This document shows, piece after piece, positions 12,500 through 39,069 of a stretch of DNA of 43,437 nucleotides. How positions within the stretch are numbered: position 1 is the first letter of the stretch; the number at the start of each line of letters is the position of its first letter. Under the pieces are notes generated by a model. That model was not told where the DNA came from and did not search any database. It saw only the letters and a program-made list of their open reading frames with translations. Source of the DNA: a virus (lineage: Duplodnaviria > Heunggongvirae > Uroviricota > Caudoviricetes); IMG/VR virus record IMGVR_UViG_2563366824_000005, positions 1 through 43,437 of that record; one strand, 5' to 3'. Made by a program: the position numbers and the translations under genes.

Positions 12500-14131
<1,632 letters not shown>

Positions 14132-28762: not shown

Positions 28763-28796
28763 GGAGTTTACTCACATCTGACAAAATCAATATAAA

Positions 28797-28818
28797 CAGC
28801 CCCTCCGGAGAGGGGCTG
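28797..28818. terminator. strong 9-bp GC hairpin (CAGCCCCTC-CGGA-GAGGGGCTG)
   Basis: perfect inverted repeat; U-rich tract on the minus-strand side only. Confidence 0.45.
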
Positions 28819-29209
28819 GAGAGTGGCGCTATGTGCCATTGCATGGTGCCGGGTGCCTCCCGGTGAATTCAGTACCAGCACCTGAATCCGCGATTATCCC
28901 ATATACCTACTCGCTGATTGCCCCTCCGCACAGGGGGATTCACCATGCCAGTTTCTTTTAACAAACTCCCCGCAAACCAGACAACAGTCAACCGCCTGAA
29001 TTGTGAAGTATTTAAAAATTTCTCCCGCTAACTGATACCCGGCTAACAGTCTGGCGTTTTCTTTTTCAGCAACGGGAAAGCAACAACCACCACACCCGCC
29101 ACCAGCACACCGTCAGCCAGCACTGACATTATCCGGCTGCTGCAATGCCATTCACAAAAACAGTAAGCAATCACTTTTTACCGTAACAGGTGATAATCCA
29201 GATATGTAT

Positions 29210-29673: not shown

Positions 29674-29750
29674 TGGCGCGCTGTACTGGATTCGAACCAG
29701 TGACCGATTGCTTAGAAGGCAATTGCTCTGTCCGGCTGAGCTAACAACGC
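29674..29750 (-). tRNA. tRNA-Arg (anticodon UCU)
   Basis: 77-nt cloverleaf GCGTTGTTAGCTCAGCCGGACAGAGCAATTGCCTTCTAAGCAATCGGTCACTGGTTCGAATCCAGTACAGCGCGCCA with encoded CCA. Confidence 0.85.
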
Positions 29751-29784
29751 TGAATACCGATAATGGACCGCCATCGGGGACCCG

Positions 29785-29795
29785 CCCCCCCCCCC
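29785..29795. repeat. homopolymeric C11 (G11 on minus strand) tract between the two tRNA genes
   Basis: cccgccccccccccccgcacc at 29781-29800. Confidence 0.9.
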
Positions 29796-29856
29796 GCACC
29801 AACACCCCTGTTATCGTGTCGTCTGCTCTTCCTGATAAGCTAATGGCGGTTTGTGA

Positions 29857-29932
29857 TGGTGGCCCTTGCTGGATTTGAACCAGCGACCTGGCGATTATGA
29901 GTCGCTCGCTCTCACCACTGAGCTAAAGGACC
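29857..29932 (-). tRNA. tRNA-Ile2 (anticodon CAU, ileX/ileZ-like; would be called tRNA-Met by anticodon alone)
   Basis: 76-nt cloverleaf GGTCCTTTAGCTCAGTGGTGAGAGCGAGCGACTCATAATCGCCAGGTCGCTGGTTCAAATCCAGCAAGGGCCACCA, resembles E. coli ileX. Confidence 0.8.
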
Positions 29933-30075: not shown

Positions 30076-30897
30076 TTACCTAGTTACCTTTTTTAACTGC
30101 CGCTCAGCCCATGCTTCTTCAATATCAAACCGGGTCACCAGCGCATCATAGAATTTCTTAACTGTTTTTTCCCATGACGCGCGTGTTATCTGGTTTGTCA
30201 CCTCGCATATAGCATTAAATGCCTCCGTTGATGGTAGCCTTTCATAGCCACGACCACCACAACGCTGGCAGTCTCTGATAACAGGCATACCACGTTTTAC
30301 CGACTCTTCACGATGAATGGCGACACCACGCCCACGGCAATCCTTACAGGCGGTGGAAACCTCACCCTTCCCGCCACACTCCGGACAGGCAACTTTTACC
30401 ACCTCCCTGACTTTTTTCCATTCTTCCCAGTAAGACGGATACACACCTTTCGTACACTTTGCCCATACCGGCGGCTTACCATCCGGATACTGGACCTTGT
30501 TTGTAAAAACTACGCTTTCAATAAATTTTTCCCCATAGCAACAAGGGCACAGCTTTTTACTCGCTGCGCTGCGGGCATAATCCTCAAAAGCGCACGAAGC
30601 CATAATGCGCATCACTACCGGTTTTATTTCTGCCGGAAGTTTTCTCAACGCCGCCACACGATCGCACCGACTGAGTGCATAATCTGCCAGTAATTCTGTT
30701 GCCCGCGCCCTGTCATTCATACTAATGCCCATCTTCCCCAGGAACGCAGAAAACCCCATCTCAGCCCGATTCTGTGTCATGCCCTGCGCGGCCATCACAT
30801 CAGTGATACTCAGCGCATCTTTTGACGTTGAGGCCGATGCATCGGTCAGGCAAGGGGATTTTGGGGAGTAGTATTTCGGTAAATCTTCCAGTTTCAT
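30076..30897 (-). CDS. late-gene antiterminator Q-like protein (Qin QuuQ-type)
   Basis: 273 aa with paired CxxC motifs; positioned between rusA and the late promoter/tRNAs. Confidence 0.75.
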   Translation of the reverse strand: MKLEDLPKYYSPKSPCLTDASASTSKDALSITDVMAAQGMTQNRAEMGFSAFLGKMGISMNDRARATELLADYALSRCDRVAALRKLPAEIKPVVMRIMASCAFEDYARSAASKKLCPCCYGEKFIESVVFTNKVQYPDGKPPVWAKCTKGVYPSYWEEWKKVREVVKVACPECGGKGEVSTACKDCRGRGVAIHREESVKRGMPVIRDCQRCGGRGYERLPSTEAFNAICEVTNQITRASWEKTVKKFYDALVTRFDIEEAWAERQLKKVTR

Positions 30898-31268
30898 TTT
30901 TTGACCTGCTCTTCATGCATTATGGGGTAAATCTTCACCCCCAGACGTCCACCAGATACTGGCTGACCACGAACGATATTGATTTCATCAAACTGCTCAT
31001 CGTCCATTAACACTCCCGCATGCGTCAGCGCATCCAGCGGTGCTTTCAGGATATTGTCCAGGTCGCGACGACGCTTATCCGGTGGCTCTGCAATCACCTT
31101 TATCGCCAGCCTTCCGGACAGGCTTAATTTCAGCCGCTGCTGGCGAACAATAAGCGCCACAGCACGGCGATAACGCTTTCCCTCCTCCGAGATAAAATAT
31201 GTGCTGCCACGGCGTCGCCAGTAAGTGTTCACCGTCGGCGGGTAAGGTAAAACCAAATCTATGAGCAT
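30894..31268 (-). CDS. rusA: Holliday junction resolvase RusA
   Basis: 124 aa with RusA hallmark ...DKRRRDLDNILKAPLDALTHAGVLMDDEQ... Confidence 0.85.
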   Translation of the reverse strand: MLIDLVLPYPPTVNTYWRRRGSTYFISEEGKRYRRAVALIVRQQRLKLSLSGRLAIKVIAEPPDKRRRDLDNILKAPLDALTHAGVLMDDEQFDEINIVRGQPVSGGRLGVKIYPIMHEEQVKK

Positions 31269-31280
31269 CAGTCACCTCTT

Positions 31281-32330
31281 TTACCCAAGCACGCCAGTTG
31301 CAAAGGCGTGATCAAGAAAACGAAAAATTAAATCAACCTGAGAACCATGCTTTTCTTCGAACGCCAGCGGATCCGCATGAAGCTCGTTGTGATGCTCCCG
31401 ACACAGCGGTAGCGTGAAAATATCGTGAGATTTTGTCCCCATTCCGCCCTGACCATGACCAATCAGGTGATGGGGATCGTCGGCTGGCTTACCACAACAC
31501 GCACACGGCTGTGTCTTCACCCAGCGTGTGTATTTCTCGTTAACCCAGCGGCGACGTTTAGGTCGTTTCATGAAAGATTCCGGAGACTCAGGATCAACGG
31601 CAATGCTGACCACCGTCTTTTCCTGTGGTGGGTTCTGTTGCTGGTGGGTGTGAGGCAGCGGCGCAAGATTTTTTGTGCGCTGTTTCAGTATGCTGGTGGC
31701 GGTCTGCTCTCCCGGTACGATGTCGCTTTCACGGTACATTGAGCGGATTTTTTCCGCACGCAACCCCAGCGAACGACGTAATACCGCTTCCGGTAGCGCG
31801 TCCGCCACCTGATTGCGGACCGCCCACCAGGATAATTCAGCCAGAGATAATTCACGCTCCTGCGTACCGCTTATTGCGTGACCGATGACGTCAATCATCC
31901 ATGCTGACAGGTTTTGATGAGCAACTTGCTCGAGTGATTCGGATGTCTGGTCACGCAGCTGGTTGTCGCAGTGCCAGCACAACACCATTGCGCCGGTACC
32001 ATAACGGTGAATGACGGTTTCGCTGTGATGATAATCGCCGTGTGGCCACTGGCAGGATTTAATATGGCGCAACAGCCAGTCAGACAATGCACCAGCACCA
32101 CCAGCAGCACGAATCACCCGTGCGTTACTGAAAAACGGCAGCAATGTTTTGTCTTCCACCAGCGGCTGGCGAGCGGCAGGAACGACCCCGGACGGCAGAT
32201 TACGCATGCTTTTCGGTTCCGGCTCCACCAGTAACCGGGTATTGTGGAATACCGGCATGGATTCACGGCCCGGCTTAACGATCACCAGCCCGAGTTCCGG
32301 TACCAGAACAGGTCGAAGTAATACCCGCAC
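31281..32330 (-). CDS. DUF968 protein (YdfU-like) with C-terminal HNH-like Cys/His motif
   Basis: 349 aa; CACCGKPADDPHHLIGHGQGG...H motif; same position as ydfU in Qin. Confidence 0.65.
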   Translation of the reverse strand: MRVLLRPVLVPELGLVIVKPGRESMPVFHNTRLLVEPEPKSMRNLPSGVVPAARQPLVEDKTLLPFFSNARVIRAAGGAGALSDWLLRHIKSCQWPHGDYHHSETVIHRYGTGAMVLCWHCDNQLRDQTSESLEQVAHQNLSAWMIDVIGHAISGTQERELSLAELSWWAVRNQVADALPEAVLRRSLGLRAEKIRSMYRESDIVPGEQTATSILKQRTKNLAPLPHTHQQQNPPQEKTVVSIAVDPESPESFMKRPKRRRWVNEKYTRWVKTQPCACCGKPADDPHHLIGHGQGGMGTKSHDIFTLPLCREHHNELHADPLAFEEKHGSQVDLIFRFLDHAFATGVLG

Positions 32331-32331
32331 G

Positions 32332-32610
32332 TTACCTCCAGATGCGTTGCTGGAATGTGCGGGATGGACGCGGTGGGCGTTCGGAGTAAGGCAATCTGAC
32401 TGAGATTATCCAGTGACGGTAGTCGAGGCTAAGGGCTTTTTTAACCTCGTATCCGCGCCTGCGGTAACACTGAATTATCCATTCAGCCTGCTCTTCAGTG
32501 CATGGTGGATGCTGGAACCAGTCCGATTTGAATGCATGAAAACGCCGTCCGCATCTGCTGGCAAAGACGGCAGAATCATCAGAATTGTGTAATTTGGTAT
32601 CGTGCGCCAT
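32332..32610 (-). CDS. Rem-like small protein
   Basis: 92 aa from first ATG (MAHDTKLHNSDDSAVF...); track ORF starts at an upstream TTG; position matches rem in Qin. Confidence 0.45.
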   Translation of the reverse strand: MAHDTKLHNSDDSAVFASRCGRRFHAFKSDWFQHPPCTEEQAEWIIQCYRRRGYEVKKALSLDYRHWIISVRLPYSERPPRPSRTFQQRIWR

Positions 32611-33068
32611 CGGTTGTCTCTGCTGGCGCAGCAGGTGCCAGTTGTTCAGGCTGGCGTATAAAGTATAAATAAACTGGTTCCAGTGTAAAGCCCCTACATT
32701 AATGGAATAAAAGTCAAACAACAGATTGTTGGGATAAACACAACGCTTATTATTAAAAGCGATTAGATAAATTAAATTTTAATGTTATGCAATTTTACCA
32801 GATCATCATAACATCTCGTTTGAAACCACCGAAACAACAACCATATCAATATTGATTATGTTAAAGTGAGTAAATATGGAAAACAACAAATCTGCACATT
32901 ACGCTCCTTTTTTATCTGTGATACTTTTTGTTTTATGCTGTGTGTGGGCATTATTTTTATAAAAATATTCACAGATAAAATAAACCCGCCGAAGCGGGTT
33001 AAGTGCGGGTGCATTGAGGATGCCTGACACATCAGAGGTGGCGAGGGATTTCTCCCTCGCCGGGTCTC

Positions 33069-33224
33069 TTACTCCTCAGGTTCGTAAACTGTGAAGACAG
33101 CGACCTCCGTCTGGCCGGTTCGGATTCGTACCTCGCAGAGGTCTTTCCTCGTTACCAGTGCCGTCACTATGACGGTTAAACAGATGACGATCAGGGCGAT
33201 TAACATCGCCTTTTGCTGCTTCAT
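33069..33224 (-). CDS. hokD: Hok-family type I toxin (HokD/RelF-like)
   Basis: 51 aa MKQQKAMLIALIVICLTVIVTALVTRKDLCEVRIRTGQTEVAVFTAYEPEE; AAGGAG SD; below track length cut-off. Confidence 0.85.
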   Translation of the reverse strand: MKQQKAMLIALIVICLTVIVTALVTRKDLCEVRIRTGQTEVAVFTVYEPEE

Positions 33225-33481
33225 AGCCTGCTTCTCCTTGACCTTTCGGTCCGTAAGAGGCTAATCTCTATGTGTCGCATAGATATGGCCTCAGATTAAT
33301 GTTAAACGTCTTGCAGGACGCGTAATGTTACCTGGGGCTTTTCTCTATCTGCCGTTGGTGTTCATGCCCGAGGCAGATAGCCTCAAGCACCCGCAGTCAT
33401 TCTACTTAACTAAGATTTCCCCGCAAACCGTTTTTGTCCAGCACAATAAATATCCAACTAAACCAATGGAGTTCGCTGTAT

Positions 33482-33661
33482 TTACCGCCAGTATTCAATG
33501 CACATGACCGCCATGAACACCCCTAAAAAAAGGGCATTTATATATCCAAATATTAATATCAAAACATCAACTTTTTCCATATACCTTGCTGTGAAGATGA
33601 TGGGCATACATGATACGAACAACCAGAACGCAACAAACAAAAACTGCAATGCGTTTTTCAT
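33482..33661 (-). CDS. hypothetical small two-helix membrane protein (59 aa)
   Basis: strong AGGAGG SD 4 nt before ATG 33661; two hydrophobic helices; AT-rich context. Confidence 0.4.
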   Translation of the reverse strand: MKNALQFLFVAFWLFVSCMPIIFTARYMEKVDVLILIFGYINALFLGVFMAVMCIEYWR

Positions 33662-34199
33662 TATTCCTCCTACAATCAATGTGCAATTACATTTAAACAC
33701 ACCTCAATTTGGCCGGACATATAAATATCTAAACTAGAAAAAATCACTTACATAGCGTTACAAACTCTTTAGTCTAAAGGTTCATCGTAAAACATTCCCC
33801 ATACTTATCAGTCCGTTCCGCGCCAGGTAGCTTATTGCCTTATCTGGCAACCTATAATCAGGTTTCCGCTTTTTCAGTTGGCTGGTCGTTTAACCGACAT
33901 AGTTAACCCATTAATCTAGTTGCCGGATGTTGGTGGATTTTCGCGTTTTAGTTGTTCATAAAAGTGCACAGCTTTAACCAGTTCTTCTGATGTAACCAGG
34001 GCTGGTGAGGCAGTGAATAAGGCCTGAATTTGATAGTTCGGCCTGTCGTTACAATCCTCTTTTTTCGGTACATATTTCCAGTCAACAGACCACTACTTCT
34101 CCTGAAAGTCCGTAACGCCTTTTTTCACGTAGCGATATCGCCATGCCACTGGTTTTGCTTGCCCCGCCGTTTCATACCCTTCCTGATAATTAATCTCGC

Positions 34200-34376
34200 T
34201 CATTCATCGCCCCACTCATCACAATATGCTTCGACCGGATTTTTTCCTGCTTCATAATCATCACGCCATGCTTCAGCATCAGCAGCACTGCCACCACGTA
34301 ACTCTGCATAGTCCATTAACAGTTCATGCCATTTTTCAAAACTGACGTTGTATTTAGTTGAACCAAAATCAGCCAT
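34200..34376 (-). CDS. hypothetical acidic small protein (58 aa)
   Basis: MADFGSTKYNVSFEKWHELLMDYAELRGG...; start overlaps stop of upstream acidic ORF (AATGGCTGA); below track cut-off. Confidence 0.4.
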   Translation of the reverse strand: MADFGSTKYNVSFEKWHELLMDYAELRGGSAADAEAWRDDYEAGKNPVEAYCDEWGDE

Positions 34377-34551
34377 TTTGCTCTTCCTCTTCGTCTTTTA
34401 TTTCGTGATATGAGTAATTGCAGTAGTTAAAGAAAATATCTTTTGCTTCGTCATGTATTTCATCAGGCGTCGCATCAGCATCCACTTCGAATTCATCCTC
34501 GAAATCTCCACCAGCCATTCCCGTTTCAATAATTATTTTGAACTTTCGCAT
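34369..34551 (-). CDS. hypothetical highly acidic small protein (60 aa)
   Basis: track ORF; about one third Asp/Glu (FEDEFEVDADATPDEIHDE...KDEEEEQNG). Confidence 0.45.
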   Translation of the reverse strand: MRKFKIIIETGMAGGDFEDEFEVDADATPDEIHDEAKDIFFNYCNYSYHEIKDEEEEQNG

Positions 34552-34644
34552 TTCACTACCGCCCTTTCGGGTGGCCTCCTGCTGTTCTGAGGGTGCAGAA
34601 ATCCCTCCGGTTAAGGATTAAATTTTTAACAGTGCTAAATTTAA

Positions 34645-34960
34645 TTATTCAGTTTTGGATTTTGTCACCCTGCGTATCCGCGCTTTCCCGTTACGCTCAA
34701 TCTGAATTAGCTTTTCTATATTTTTTCGCCTTTCCCGTTCCTCCTGGCGCAAGAGCCTTACATCATCTGCCAGTCTGGTTTCTCTTTTCGCCACAGAGAG
34801 CATCCAGTCAAATGGCTCCACAACTGCACCGCAGATTTTACAGCGGACCTGACGCTCTTTTTCGTCAACCCGGACAGAAGCGTGATGGCAATATGGTCTT
34901 TCCGATGGCTCATAAAGAAAATTAACCTGATTACGAGGGTCATCCTCTTTTATCGGAAAT
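34645..34960 (-). pseudogene. zinc-ribbon-like ORF lacking a canonical start codon (possible frameshifted gene)
   Basis: open frame ...PYCHHASVRVDEKERQVRCKICGAVVEPFDW... ending at TAA 34645-34647, with no in-frame ATG/GTG/TTG near its 5' end; ATG-initiated 61-aa ORF 34758-34943 is in another frame. Confidence 0.25.
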
Positions 34961-35058
34961 AAAACGATATTGCTTAACTAATCCTCTGGTTTTATTTCCA
35001 TGCTCCTCTCCTTTGATGCGAATGCCAGCGGCAATTGAAGCCTGATAGCTAATTTCAC

Positions 35059-35481
35059 TCACAGTACCGCCTCCTGAAAATTACCCTGATAGAAAGCCAG
35101 TACACGCTGCATAGCTTCGCTCTTCCGGCACTCGCGACAGATTATATTCAGGCGCCTGTCGTAGCGGCGTATTTCTCCGTCTGGTAATGACCAGATTAGG
35201 TCCGGATCAACCGCAGATGGTTTCTTCGGCTTTGCCCTTGAGAGCTTTTTACGGGCATTTTGCCAGTCCTTACGCGCCTGTTCAGACGGGAATAACCCGT
35301 AACCAGAGTTGTATACATCGCCACTGGCAACCAGCTCTCTGGCCAGAACGCTCATCAGATATCTTGTTGCCCCAGTTTTAGTTTCCAGTTGTCGTAACGT
35401 CTCGCGCCCACTCTGGCGTACGAGTTCAACAACCTGCCCTTTAATTTTTTCCCGCTCTTCTTGTGTAAAAACTTTTGCCAC
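35059..35481 (-). CDS. hypothetical protein (140 aa), possibly DNA-binding, immediately downstream of replication gene
   Basis: track ORF; basic C-terminal half with CRECRK motif; occupies the lambda P position but is not P-like. Confidence 0.45.
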   Translation of the reverse strand: MAKVFTQEEREKIKGQVVELVRQSGRETLRQLETKTGATRYLMSVLARELVASGDVYNSGYGLFPSEQARKDWQNARKKLSRAKPKKPSAVDPDLIWSLPDGEIRRYDRRLNIICRECRKSEAMQRVLAFYQGNFQEAVL

Positions 35482-35521
35482 AAGCCCTCCTGAAAATTAC
35501 CTCATGACCAGAAATTAACAC

Positions 35522-36598
35522 TTACCCCCTGAAGCCCGGCGGAATTTCGTTATCCGGTTCAGAAATATGATTCACACAACGCTGGTTGTTCGTGCCGCTT
35601 ACCGGGAGCAACCAGGGGTTCTCAAAATTCCGGTCCGGTCCAAAAAACGTCGTCGCTCGCTGAACAAATTCCGTTCCCGTTTTCCCGGTAGCCGCCAAGT
35701 ATCTTGCGTAACGCCTCACGCCATCCAGCATGGCCTCTGGTGGCACCCCCTCGCGTAATCTGGCCTTCCAGGCACTGAAAGCGGATTTCTTCGGGTTTGC
35801 TCCGGCACGCAACGGGTACTCCCGCCAGACCTGTTCGAACACATCCGGATAATCCACTCGTCCCACAGACTGCCCGGTGTTTTCCGGGACTACCCGATCG
35901 GCTTCCCGCTGAATGGCGGAATCGGCTTCGGGCTGCTGCAGTTGGTGTGATGGCTCCGGCCTTGCGGTCATCACCTGCTGCACAGCGCCCGAATCGGCTT
36001 TCAGCGCATACGCTGAATCGGCTTCCGGTGTCGTGCCTGCTGGCTGACCAAGATTGACGGTCTGAACATCCCCTGCCTGGTTCGTGGCGTTTTTTACGCC
36101 ATGGACCATAGTGTTTTGATCTTCTTGATCTGTATCTTTATCTGTATCTTTATCTGTCGTGACTCGTCGTGACATGTGCGTGACATTTCGTGACGCGCCG
36201 TGACAATCGCCATTTTGTTCCCGCTTTCTTTCCCTCTCTCGCTGCGCCCTCTTGCGCTCTGCAGGAGATTTTGCGGTTTGCGAAATATTGCCGTTGTCCT
36301 CTTTAAGCACCTGGCGTTTTTCCCATCCAGTGATTAAATCACCATCAAGTACCCGCCCCTGCATCGTCTGCAAAATTGAATCAATTACCTCTTCTGTCAC
36401 GTCGAGCGCACTTGCCAAATCTTCTGTCGTGACATCAATGTGACCTCGCGTGACATTTCGTGACGCGCTCACCAGGAGGTGGATATACACTGCCATCACT
36501 GTTGCAATTGGCTGCCCTGACACCCTGGCAATTGTTCGCCACTTAGGGTCATTTGGCATGTCATGCCATAATCTGAGCCAGGCGTTAGCCATACTCAC
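35522..36598 (-). CDS. putative replication initiation protein (lambda O analogue) carrying internal iterons
   Basis: 358 aa; N-terminal region resembles phage replisome-organiser/DUF1376-type domains (from memory); linker encoded by iteron repeats; position after cII-like gene. Confidence 0.6.
   Translation of the reverse strand: MSMANAWLRLWHDMPNDPKWRTIARVSGQPIATVMAVYIHLLVSASRNVTRGHIDVTTEDLASALDVTEEVIDSILQTMQGRVLDGDLITGWEKRQVLKEDNGNISQTAKSPAERKRAQRERERKREQNGDCHGASRNVTHMSRRVTTDKDTDKDTDQEDQNTMVHGVKNATNQAGDVQTVNLGQPAGTTPEADSAYALKADSGAVQQVMTARPEPSHQLQQPEADSAIQREADRVVPENTGQSVGRVDYPDVFEQVWREYPLRAGANPKKSAFSAWKARLREGVPPEAMLDGVRRYARYLAATGKTGTEFVQRATTFFGPDRNFENPWLLPVSGTNNQRCVNHISEPDNEIPPGFRG
36128..36204. 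repeat. candidate origin iterons: five direct CGTGAC repeats at 10-11 bp spacing plus 12-bp tandem tctgtatcttta x2
   Basis: CGTGAC at 36158, 36168, 36179, 36189, 36199; tandem units at 36128-36151. Confidence 0.55.
36406..36464. repeat. second iteron-like cluster (CGTGAC/GTCACG repeats)
   Basis: GTCACG at 36406, CGTGAC at 36428, 36449, 36459, GTGAC at 36440; segment cgtgacatttcgtgacgcgc duplicated from the first cluster. Confidence 0.45.
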
Positions 36599-36663: not shown

Positions 36664-37089
36664 TCAATGCACAGCCACAATATTTCCTGCAGGGCCACCA
36701 CGATTCATCTGGTTGAAACCAGCGATCGCCACTGCGACAAAATCATCAGCGTCTCTCACCAGTCGTTCCCGCGTCTCCACTAGTTCCCGAAAATAGGCTG
36801 AGCTATGACTGCGCATTCGGGCCACCAGCAGAGGTGGCATTGCTTTTTCGATAGCTGGTAACAACGCCTGAATTTTTTTAACCGCATCAGGGGTGTCTTT
36901 CTCCACCCAGCGGAAAATTTTCTGAGTATTGCGAGCCAGGGCTTCCGGATGGCTGTCGTCATACAGTTCCGGGAACGTCATTCCCAGCTCGAAATACGCT
37001 TTGGTAATTTTCACAGCCGGTACTTTTTCGCCGTCCGGATGCGCCCAGGCATTCATCGCCATGCGGATGTGTTCATGCTTGATTTTCAT
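36664..37089 (-). CDS. YdaT-like protein (proposed cII analogue)
   Basis: 141 aa starting MKIKHEHI...; sits between cro-like and O-like genes; family recalled from memory. Confidence 0.5.
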   Translation of the reverse strand: MKIKHEHIRMAMNAWAHPDGEKVPAVKITKAYFELGMTFPELYDDSHPEALARNTQKIFRWVEKDTPDAVKKIQALLPAIEKAMPPLLVARMRSHSSAYFRELVETRERLVRDADDFVAVAIAGFNQMNRGGPAGNIVAVH

Positions 37090-37340
37090 GAATCAACTCC
37101 CATCAGCTTTTTCGTAGTAGTTTTATTCCTGCCAATAGTTAAAATTGCATCGGCAGAAAATAATCCGTTTGATGCAAGAGCGATTTTTTCAGCGTAATTT
37201 GTTTCGCCGGTATATTCTGTGCGAGGCAATTTTCCGTTATCCATCCATTTATAGATTGCTCTTTGGCTGACACCACAAACGTCGGCCACAACAGCAACGC
37301 GAACAGTTTTGATTACATCTTCAAGTGTTTTCTGGTACAT
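37086..37340 (-). CDS. Cro-like HTH regulator
   Basis: 84 aa from MYQKTLEDVIKTVRVAVVADVCGVSQRAIYKWMDNGKLP... (HTH); divergent from repressor; GAGGGTGA SD. Confidence 0.65.
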   Translation of the reverse strand: MYQKTLEDVIKTVRVAVVADVCGVSQRAIYKWMDNGKLPRTEYTGETNYAEKIALASNGLFSADAILTIGRNKTTTKKLMGVDS

Positions 37341-37419
37341 ATCACCCTCACAATGTGAACTTTGAGTACATGCTATAACAGAACTGACAGTACATTCAAG
37401 AGCGAATATCATTGAACTT
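37341..37419. promoter_or_regulatory. divergent promoter/operator region between cro-like and repressor genes
   Basis: 79-bp spacer with GTACAT motifs at 37366 and 37391 and a third at 37334 in the cro start; repressor ATG lacks an SD (possibly leaderless like lambda cI). Confidence 0.4.
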
Positions 37420-37839
37420 ATGGTTCATGAAGATAAAGCGCGTAAAGAGTTCGCCAGTAGGCTTGCGCTAGCCTGTGAAAACGCTGGTTATGAACAACAT
37501 GGAAGGCAGGCAGAAATTGCCCGTCGAATGAAATTAACACCAAAAGCGGTTAGCAAATGGTTTAATGGCGAAACAATTCCTCGCCGGGAGAAATTAAGGG
37601 AATTAGCAACACTAATAGGAACAACACCAACCTATCTTTTGGGAGAGGATACAGAAGAAAGTGGACAGGTACGTTTCTATCAGGAGTTAAATCCAAGACA
37701 AAAAATCATCATTGACCTTCTGGACGAGCTCCCTGACAGTGAGACAGATGAACTTTTAAAAACTCTTGAAGAGAAAAAACAGAAGTACAATGCAATTTAC
37801 GAAGAGTTAGCACGAAAGAAAAAACAAAAAGCCTCTTAA
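37420..37839 (+). CDS. CI/DicA-like repressor (XRE-family HTH)
   Basis: 139 aa; HTH ...RQAEIARRMKLTPKAVSKWFNGETIPRREKLRELATLIG...; same orientation as downstream dicB operon, as dicA in Qin. Confidence 0.75.
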   Translation: MVHEDKARKEFASRLALACENAGYEQHGRQAEIARRMKLTPKAVSKWFNGETIPRREKLRELATLIGTTPTYLLGEDTEESGQVRFYQELNPRQKIIIDLLDELPDSETDELLKTLEEKKQKYNAIYEELARKKKQKAS

Positions 37840-39011: not shown

Positions 39012-39069
39012 TTTCTGGTGACGTTTGGCGGTATCAGTTTTACTCCGTGACTGCTCTGCCGCCCTTTTT
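39012..39069 (+). ncRNA. dicF: DicF small regulatory RNA with its terminator
   Basis: TTTCTGGTGACGTTTGGCGGTATCAGTTTTACTCCGTGACTGCTCTGCCGCCC followed by TTTTT matches K-12 DicF as recalled. Confidence 0.8.

Follow-up and report, generated by a model that had tools for sequence, protein, structure and literature searches.

The replication origin of bacteriophage lambda lies inside the gene of its own initiator, O, downstream of cro and cII, and consists, in this order, of iterons, a tract that is A-rich and purine-rich on the sense strand, and an imperfect palindrome. Direct repeats within its own gene 38 (oriL), beside an AT-rich unwinding element, are bound by gp38 of SPP1 (PMC6316719). The present analysis concerns the 'phage replisome organizer' gene of the viral record IMGVR_UViG_2563366824_000005, whose whole stretch of 43,437 nucleotides (nt) is hereafter called the window and represents a complete lambdoid Escherichia coli prophage (integrase, RecE-like exonuclease, DicF, hok/sok, Q, tRNAs, lysis genes and terminase). 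This gene, encoded on the minus strand, holds two arrays of a direct repeat of 6 base pairs (bp), an AT-rich tract and a palindrome; one of the arrays, the tract and the palindrome follow the order of lambda. Judged from sequence, positions 36078-36470 are very probably the vegetative replication origin of the prophage, bound by the initiator whose gene holds it. An iteron origin inside an 'O-like' initiator gene, i.e. the lambda arrangement, had been proposed in a preliminary description of this DNA, and is strongly supported by the shared order of the elements, the concerted change of motif in both arrays and selection at the DNA level. The term 'O-like' holds for the protein as an analogy but not as homology, since hhalign comparison of its N-terminal domain (N-domain) profile with lambda O gave a probability of 0.1%, and no Pfam O-family match was obtained at E <= 10.

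The initiator gene occupies the position of lambda O, after Cro-like and CII-like/YdaT genes, opposite a DicA-like repressor gene and before a DUF977/Ren-like gene, a Ren-like gene being present downstream in lambda and the window alike. Both initiators are modular, with an N-terminal DNA-binding part, a linker encoded by the origin and a C-terminal recruitment part. The four iterons of lambda occupy nt 349-433 of the 900-nt O gene and are followed by ACAAAAGACACTATTACAAAAGAAAAAAGAAAAGATTATT, as compared to nt 389-435 of 1071 for the corresponding array of the window, a nearly equal relative position. However, lambda iterons are annotated as 18-bp units with internal dyad symmetry, ~20-24 bp apart, whereas the window cores are 6 bp long, asymmetric and repeated every 10-11 bp. 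Unlike lambda, the window also has a second array in the N-domain coding part of the gene, and its initiator is followed by no P/DnaC-type gene, the next being the DUF977/Ren-like one, while the protein itself ends in a DnaT-type tail. Relative to lambda, novelty lies in the family of the initiator, in a 6-bp iteron grammar of one-turn period whose words are lineage-specific, in the twin concerted arrays and in the loader-less, DnaT-tailed module.

The locus resembles SPP1 gp38 in carrying direct repeats together with an AT-rich element inside the organizer's gene, in a winged helix of DnaD-N type and in the name 'replisome organizer'. SPP1 differs in its second origin, oriR, 13 kb away and in its own loader (gp39) and helicase (gp40), as against a single locus with two arrays and neither gene in the window. 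The Pfam family Phage_rep_org_N (PF09681) matched the window protein below its gathering threshold (16.2 vs 23.3 bits, E = 0.011, model positions 1-119 of 121), and only one of ten diverse family members scanned gave any match to this family or reached E = 0.01.

An exact pattern search of the window located CGTGAC on the plus strand, which is GTCACG on the gene strand, at 36158, 36168, 36179, 36189 and 36199. This agrees with the five repeats spaced 10, 11, 10 and 10 bp at 36158-36204 that had been noted earlier and are here termed array B, presumably the core initiator-binding array. The second group, array A, has CGTGAC starting at 36428, 36449 and 36459 and a one-mismatch TGTGAC at 36439, with a spacing of 11/10/10 bp, and codes for the end of helix 3 and the loop preceding the helix-turn-helix. 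The preliminary description had placed this second cluster at 36406-36464; the cluster is real, but it runs from 36428 to 36464 and is accompanied by an inverted copy at 36396, which has counterparts at the equivalent place in Pseudomonas, Aeromonas and Ralstonia phage genes. It had also been stated correctly that a segment is duplicated ~270 bp away, the 20-mer CGTGACATTTCGTGACGCGC being present at 36179-36198 and 36449-36468 (270 bp apart), and that the repeats yield a duplication of ASRNVT in the protein, found at amino acids (aa) 45-50 and 135-140 in the numbering of the 358-aa open reading frame (ORF). This duplication is a by-product of the DNA repeats, with no protein repeat selected in its own right. 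The 12-bp tandem duplication described as lying ahead of the iterons was recovered by Tandem Repeats Finder as TCTTTATCTGTA in 2.9 copies (36123-36157, also readable with a 6-bp period), beside a 10-bp-period array at 36156-36205; the order was misjudged, as on the minus gene strand the iterons come first.

The clustering is far beyond expectation. CGTGAC occurs in 30 copies on both strands of the window as compared to 20.3 +/- 4.5 in shuffles, and nine of these, lying within ~310 bp, fall inside 36150-36470, where the density in the remainder of the window predicts 0.16 (Poisson P = 1.3e-13). As the 6-bp cores recur once per helical turn, all of them face the same side of the helix.

Directly after array B in gene orientation, the segment 36100-36159 has the lowest GC content of the gene (0.325-0.35) and an AT skew of -0.46 to -0.63, the sense strand being A- and purine-rich. 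The tract at 36110-36157 within it is the putative DNA-unwinding element, and is followed by the palindrome. Array B, the AT-rich tract and the palindrome together code for aa 132-174, the start of a segment (aa 132-244) modelled with a predicted local distance difference test (pLDDT) score below 50. When the origin strand was folded as single-stranded DNA, the palindrome was the only structure obtained, and the overall result was not significant (z = -1.66).

Selection on the DNA rather than on the peptide is evident from the coding frames of the repeat. The hexamer of array B is translated in three frames in the window, tGTCACg giving CH, gcGTCACGa giving SR and GTC ACG giving VT. In Pseudomonas phage phita81A, the N-domain of which is 63% identical over 163 aligned residues and 73% identical over residues 3-111, array B has four copies instead of the five of the window and codes for a different peptide, DDVTQCHAESRNVT, with the core and the 10-bp phase unchanged. 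Synonymous codon usage was examined in array A, where the peptide is conserved, for 25 loci of the GTCACG class spanning Enterobacterales, Pseudomonas, Bordetella, Acidovorax, Chromobacterium, Gilvimarinus, Stenotrophomonas and others. Array A shows a codon entropy of 0.46 bits as compared to 1.52 bits elsewhere in the N-domain (Mann-Whitney P = 1.7e-5). All 20 of 20 sequences have GTC for V49 and ACG for T50, whereas the spacer codon R51 takes all four CGN codons. Among close E. coli relatives, arrays A and B are the only indel hot spots of the N-terminal half, and they change by whole-iteron steps, as exemplified by an insertion of seven residues (TCHGVSR), i.e. 21 bp, two iterons or two helical turns. 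The one-turn spacing is kept through a mixture of 10- and 11-bp units. The reading of one hexamer in three frames and the frozen synonymous sites therefore indicate that selection acts on the DNA. The element also offers a clean natural example of an overlapping code, in which a 6-bp protein-binding word is read in three frames and indels are held to 21 bp.

Relatives were gathered with the N-domain by tblastn against phage genomes and by a profile-guided scan of one genome per species, which together left 80 usable loci from Gamma-, Beta- and Alphaproteobacteria, a few other phyla, and phages whose hosts are Pseudomonas, Aeromonas, Ralstonia, cyanobacteria or uncultured. Phased hexamer pairs number 3-7 per locus as compared to at most 1-2 in shuffles, and fall in two zones, at gene nt ~120-180 (zone A) and ~340-450 (zone B). 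Both arrays are present in 51 loci, array B only in 20, array A only in three and neither in six; zone B holds at least three phased copies in 72 of the 80. The hexamer itself differs by lineage, with the classes GTCACG, GTAACG, CGAACG(C), GCAACG and GTGACG sharing the form NNNACG (a further ACTACG-type motif, seen in two loci, is weakly supported), and the layout is retained in ~70 of the 80 loci although the hexamer varies. The conserved word is the 6-bp core alone, the 4-5-bp spacers being near-random and without dyad. The class pentamer reaches a density of 18.8 per kb in the array zone as against 2.4 per kb elsewhere in the loci. When the motif was called independently in each zone, 48 loci had at least three phased copies in both, and in 45 of these the two motifs were identical or register-shifted; two of the three discordant loci carry the same unit in another register. 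This concerted change of arrays A and B, together with purifying selection at the DNA level, is the main argument that the sites are read by the encoded N-domain.

The elements downstream of array B are conserved to different degrees. An AT-rich tract follows array B in all 71 loci with an anchorable phased array B, built of hexamer repeats of AGATAA, AGATAC or AGAGAA type; the 40 nt after the array have an AT content of 0.63 as compared to 0.43 for the gene, and a purine content of 0.75 as compared to 0.57. The best perfect stem within 100 nt after the tract averages 5.69 bp as compared to 4.70 bp in controls, and stems of at least 7 bp are found in 23% of these loci versus 6% of controls (P = 8e-9), so a GC-rich hairpin is frequent but not universal. 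The tract is length-polymorphic among the E. coli viral contigs with identical N-domains (L087-L166), measuring 30, 36, 42, 48 or 60 nt; 68 of the 80 have 36 nt. Some few of these contigs have four instead of five array-B units, or three instead of four array-A units.

Some individual loci depart from the usual form. In Erwinia phyllosphaerae, GTCAC cores occur at 5-bp and 10-bp steps (gene nt 141-225 and 411-452), and in Microcystis phage MACPNOA1 (L011) they form palindromic pairs (GTCACggcGTGAC) at gene nt 369-460. In Pseudomonas phage PACT201 (PP931175.1, 2400-3500), the initiator gene is unannotated and bears several frameshifts, probably a sequencing or assembly error, and the iteron arrays are intact.

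The arrays accompany the N-domain whatever the C-terminal part or the neighbouring genes. Relatives in Pseudomonas phages have a different C-terminal domain (C-domain), and a Toprim-DnaB fusion comes next; the array-bearing initiators of Ralstonia phage Firinga and of cyanophage Cy-LDV1 are followed by a full DnaB gene; and a relative in Aeromonas phage pAEv1818 carries the DnaT domain PF17948 (60 bits) and is followed by a DnaC-like gene. Escherichia phage PhiR5_2, conversely, has only the C-domain and tail in common with the window protein (64% identity), with a different N-domain and no GTCACG, which shows that the C-domain is exchanged modularly. The same tail is followed there by its own DnaC-like gene (L002, 3092-3832), whereas the window has none.

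A plasmid collection was also searched for the module as sole replicon. The 11 matches are large plasmids or mislabelled chromosomes with prophages, and two phage genomes. The latter are circular 50.9-kb 'plasmids' of clinical P. aeruginosa (CP137943.1 and CP124671.1) with the same N-domain surrounded by S24 repressor, CII, NinB and NinG genes; PLSDB lists no replicon type for either, and they are taken as phage genomes. Either they are phage-plasmids, or phage DNA was sequenced while it replicated; this result is at most weak support for an origin.

The ORF finder starts the initiator gene at a GTG at 36598, giving the 358-aa product of the preliminary description; the ORF stands, but translation probably starts at the ATG at 36592, given that homologues open with MANAW and that the largest cluster is of 356 aa. 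PHROG 3729 ('replication initiation protein') matches over the full length (E = 3.8e-257), and the nearest protein cluster, of 356 aa and 5786 members, bears the NCBI name 'phage replisome organizer'; some phage records label the product 'DNA replication protein O' or 'primosomal protein I'. No Pfam or NCBIfam family names the protein above threshold. A search of PDB sequences returned the DnaT tail only, apart from a spurious match to a designed repeat protein.

An AlphaFold2 model built from an 84-sequence alignment predicts the N-domain confidently, with a beta wing (residues 80-90) preceded by helices at 4-13, 18-27, 31-47, 58-65 and 69-79, and the fold resembles the N-terminal domain of DnaD. 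The basic helix that follows bears the family-wide motif W-x-K-R-Q-P-K-R-E-D...R-x-R-E-R and could contact DNA. The linker is modelled with pLDDT below 50 at aa 132-194, 196-201 and 203-244, and its length is highly variable among close relatives. For the C-domain, PHROG 1701 ('DnaD-like helicase loader', E = 6e-63) is matched, as is PHROG 9327 ('primosomal protein'). The tail (residues 335-358) is nearly identical to the C-terminal tail of DnaT in PDB entries 6aep, 2ru8 and 9zbt (E = 0.003-0.07, last 21-24 residues) and contains the DnaT tail motif SEPDxxIPPGFRG; the NCBIfam DnaT model NF002770 is matched at positions 156-179, i.e. by the tail only, with 19.2 bits against a cut-off of 201. 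PF17948, the DnaT DNA-binding domain, gave no match in the window protein with Pfam, and the C-domain outside the tail has no DnaT-family match. The coordinates of all these features are collected in Table 1.

Table 1. Positions of the putative origin elements, the initiator gene with its protein regions, and the adjoining early genes in the window.
Feature	Position	Strand	Description	Basis
Array B	36158..36204	-	five GTCACG cores, 10/10/11/10 in gene orientation; codes aa 132-147, linker start	
Array A	36428..36464	-	four cores on gene strand (GTCACG, one GTCACA), 10/10/11; codes aa 45-57	
Inverted single core	36396..36401	+	in gene orientation, ~30 bp downstream of array A	pattern search
A/T- and purine-rich tract	36110..36157	-	6/12-nt repeats GATAAAGATACA..., two GATC sites; codes TDKDTDKDTDQEDQNT	
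Palindrome	36078..36108	.	13-bp stem, 5-nt loop; directly after AT-rich tract	inverted-repeat and folding scans
Initiator gene, 'phage replisome organizer'	35522..36592	-	356 aa from ATG at 36592	ORF, PHROG 3729, protein cluster
Winged-helix N-domain, aa 3-95	36314..36592	-	putative iteron reader	AlphaFold2 model
Basic helix, aa 112-129	36212..36265	-	AERKRAQRERERKRE; between winged helix and array B	AlphaFold2 model helix
Disordered linker, aa 132-244	35867..36205	-	coding region holds array B, AT tract and palindrome	pLDDT, length variation
Helical C-domain, aa 245-334	35597..35866	-	putative helicase or loader recruitment module	PHROG matches
C-terminal tail	35525..35596	-	...QRCVNHISEPDNEIPPGFRG; DnaT-tail match	PDB and NCBIfam matches
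Upstream genes, shared early operon	36664..37412	-	CII-like/YdaT 36664-37089; Cro-like 37086-37412	ORF list, profile matches
DicA-like repressor gene, divergent	37420..37839	+	puts origin in immunity/replication region	profile matches

These observations suggest how the origin might work. The encoded N-domain is the most parsimonious candidate for the reader of the cores. Its winged-helix monomers would bind the cores head to tail on one helix face and form a nucleoprotein complex on array B, and array A, ~260 bp off, might join this complex via looping or act as a control site. The element lies inside the early operon and is therefore traversed by its transcription, which may activate the origin, as in lambda; the stress resulting from the complex, aided by this transcription, would melt the adjoining AT-rich tract. 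The C-domain and the DnaT-like tail would then bring the host DnaB helicase, probably via host DnaC, since neither a helicase nor a loader is encoded by the phage; this is the least certain step. The occurrence in PhiR5_2 of the same tail with a DnaC-like gene of its own fits, but does not prove, a contact of the tail with DnaC or DnaB-DnaC, which in the window would involve the host DnaC. Embedding the sites in the gene keeps the specificity of the initiator and its binding sites genetically inseparable.

A bolder version can be entertained as a tentative idea, with the odds against it. It holds that the origin is a loader-less mimic of DnaT action, where the melted tract would be passed straight to host DnaB-DnaC through the module copied from DnaT, coupling an origin to the restart machinery without PriA or PriB, and array A would loop or handcuff the complex and so set firing or copy number. 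DnaT and the window initiator have the tail in common, the whole PF17948 domain being carried by relatives of the initiator such as that of Aeromonas. DnaT is targeted by PriA to abandoned forks, whereas the initiator would find its target through sequence-specific binding to the origin. A 2026 paper on PriA-PriB-DnaT preprimosome structures states that DnaT is proposed to recruit DnaB/DnaC by a mechanism still unknown (PMC13377028), and no role for the tail is assigned in the sections consulted of that paper and of PMC4132743. If this version were true, the family (>2000 clusters) would provide simple sequence-specific tools for studying the recruitment of DnaB/DnaC by DnaT-type modules.

Several points weigh against the origin reading and the reader assigned to it. 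Binding, unwinding and origin activity are all inferred. Co-inheritance of the arrays with the N-domain is automatic, since they overlap or abut its coding sequence, and hence does not by itself identify the reader. No specificity residues were located, as the mutual information between motif class and N-domain columns is confounded by iteron coding and phylogeny; its top columns are iteron-coded ones together with K116 and Q119 of the basic helix, and these are not used as evidence. The GTCACG class turns up again in branches that share just 35-41% identity with the window protein (L011, L072, L073 and L077). About one locus in four lacks array A, which is therefore inessential for firing in general, and the lack of a helicase or loader gene in the replication module of the window makes the loading step speculative. 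The GC-skew analysis suggested in the preliminary description gave a cumulative minimum at ~37-38 kb; as the divergent promoter region lies there and gene orientation changes there, it lends no independent support.

Among the alternatives, it is possible, though not the favoured explanation, that the arrays, or at least array A, are control sites bound by the initiator (an autoregulatory roadblock, titration or handcuffing) rather than the firing site, in which case array B would describe the true unwinding site only in part. Array A lies in the part of the gene coding for a folded domain, has no adjacent AT-rich tract and is missing in 20-24 of the 80 loci, unlike array B with its tract, which is nearly universal; moreover, A and B almost always share one motif, as would be expected if they competed for the same protein. 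In P1 and P4, iteron sets are known to be split, with parts that flank the origin or lie far from it. In P4 (alpha protein, ori and crr) as in P1 (oriR and incA), one initiator binds two clusters of short direct repeats, one of them at the unwinding site; these initiators belong to other families, and their clusters are kilobases apart or flank the rep gene, as against the ~310 bp within coding sequence that hold both clusters of the window. A role of array A in control is, however, compatible with array B being the origin, and is thus a refinement for array A rather than a full rival. There is no evidence that a replicon of a lytic or temperate phage needs copy-number control. Furthermore, the spacing between A and B is not helically phased (~220, 231, 260, 271, 278 and 317 bp across loci), which argues against a rigid looped structure.

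That the cores are bound by some other factor, either of the host or a phage Cro-like, CII-like or DUF977 product, for transcription control, partition or packaging, is very improbable. The assignment of the cores to the initiator is indirect, and a weak sigma-70-like match lies in array B on the plus strand (GTGACA-16-GACAAT, 36180-36207); promoter-like matches in the region number three, however, as compared to 4.0 expected from shuffles. The arrays are kept where the neighbouring genes are wholly different, as in Firinga, Cy-LDV1 and the Pseudomonas and Aeromonas phages, and the motif shifts by lineage, a change incompatible with recognition by a conserved host factor. The terminase genes lie ~12 kb from the element, and so does cos or pac, and DnaA boxes are neither enriched nor present in it. 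Least probable of all is that the DNA repeats are without function, being the trace of a peptide such as ASRNVT selected at the protein level, or of neutral slippage. The peptide does occur twice, and array B does lie in a disordered, length-variable linker that would tolerate slippage. This explanation is already contradicted by the frame and codon analyses, as the hexamer gives the unrelated peptides VT, CH and SR and the synonymous positions of the core are frozen where spacer codons drift. Helical-turn spacing through mixed 10- and 11-bp units, insertions of 21 bp and a single architecture with five hexamers, i.e. different peptides, across Proteobacteria and beyond also speak against it. 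The reading of 36078-36470 as an initiator-bound origin is preferred.

This origin also differs from those of iteron plasmids (RepA/pi/RepE), which have iterons of 17-22 bp about two turns apart and usually DnaA boxes, as compared to 6-bp cores one turn apart and no box in the window. DnaA boxes are absent from 36078-36470 and not enriched in the window (35 vs 32.7 expected), so that a DnaA-dependent origin is unsupported. The scan for promoters and terminators found no excess in the region. The palindrome with a T-rich run scores as an intrinsic terminator on the antisense (plus) strand only; this signal and the sigma-70-like match may be due to chance, or may point to transcription of the origin in antisense direction.

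Of 5426 complete E. coli genomes, 2036 (38%) contain the 411-bp origin segment, mostly at 99% identity or more. The annotations over it read 'hypothetical protein', 'phage replisome organizer' or 'DnaT-like ssDNA-binding domain-containing protein', with no origin feature. Representatives of 50%-identity clusters include 2239 relatives of the N-domain at E <= 1e-3. No description of an origin for this initiator family was found in the full-text literature, a search that did not cover subscription-only papers, so a prior description is possible. An origin inside the initiator gene is of a textbook kind; the variant described here is very common, unannotated and experimentally tractable. Knowledge of the origin and of its hexamer classes allows cross-activation or interference to be predicted among the replication of co-resident prophages, and helps in the design of mini-replicons and in reading induction coverage profiles. 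As the initiator lacks a loader and yet bears a DnaT-type tail, phage origins may be connected to the restart primosome of the host, which is open to testing.

With regard to the surrounding genes, ORF and profile searches found no DnaB, DnaC or P-like gene on the minus strand between the initiator and Q (30897-35522). This interval holds only the DUF977/Ren-like gene, ORFs of at most 61 aa (one of them DUF7167), hok/sok, an HNH-type gene of 349 aa and Q. The hok/sok-type toxin-antitoxin module spans 33069-33392 on the minus strand; the Rfam sok match (33222-33392, 100.8 bits) overlaps the start of a 51-aa Hok-like ORF at 33069-33224. The immunity region is of the DicA/DicC (Qin) type, and between it and the RecE-like exonuclease gene sits the DicF antisense small RNA (39013-39064, plus strand, Rfam 76.7 bits). 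Small RNA matches to isrC and STnc100 and two tRNA genes were also found on the minus strand (13567-13689, 28788-28977 and 29677-29932), the two tRNA genes being located directly downstream of the Q-like antiterminator gene (30076-30897).

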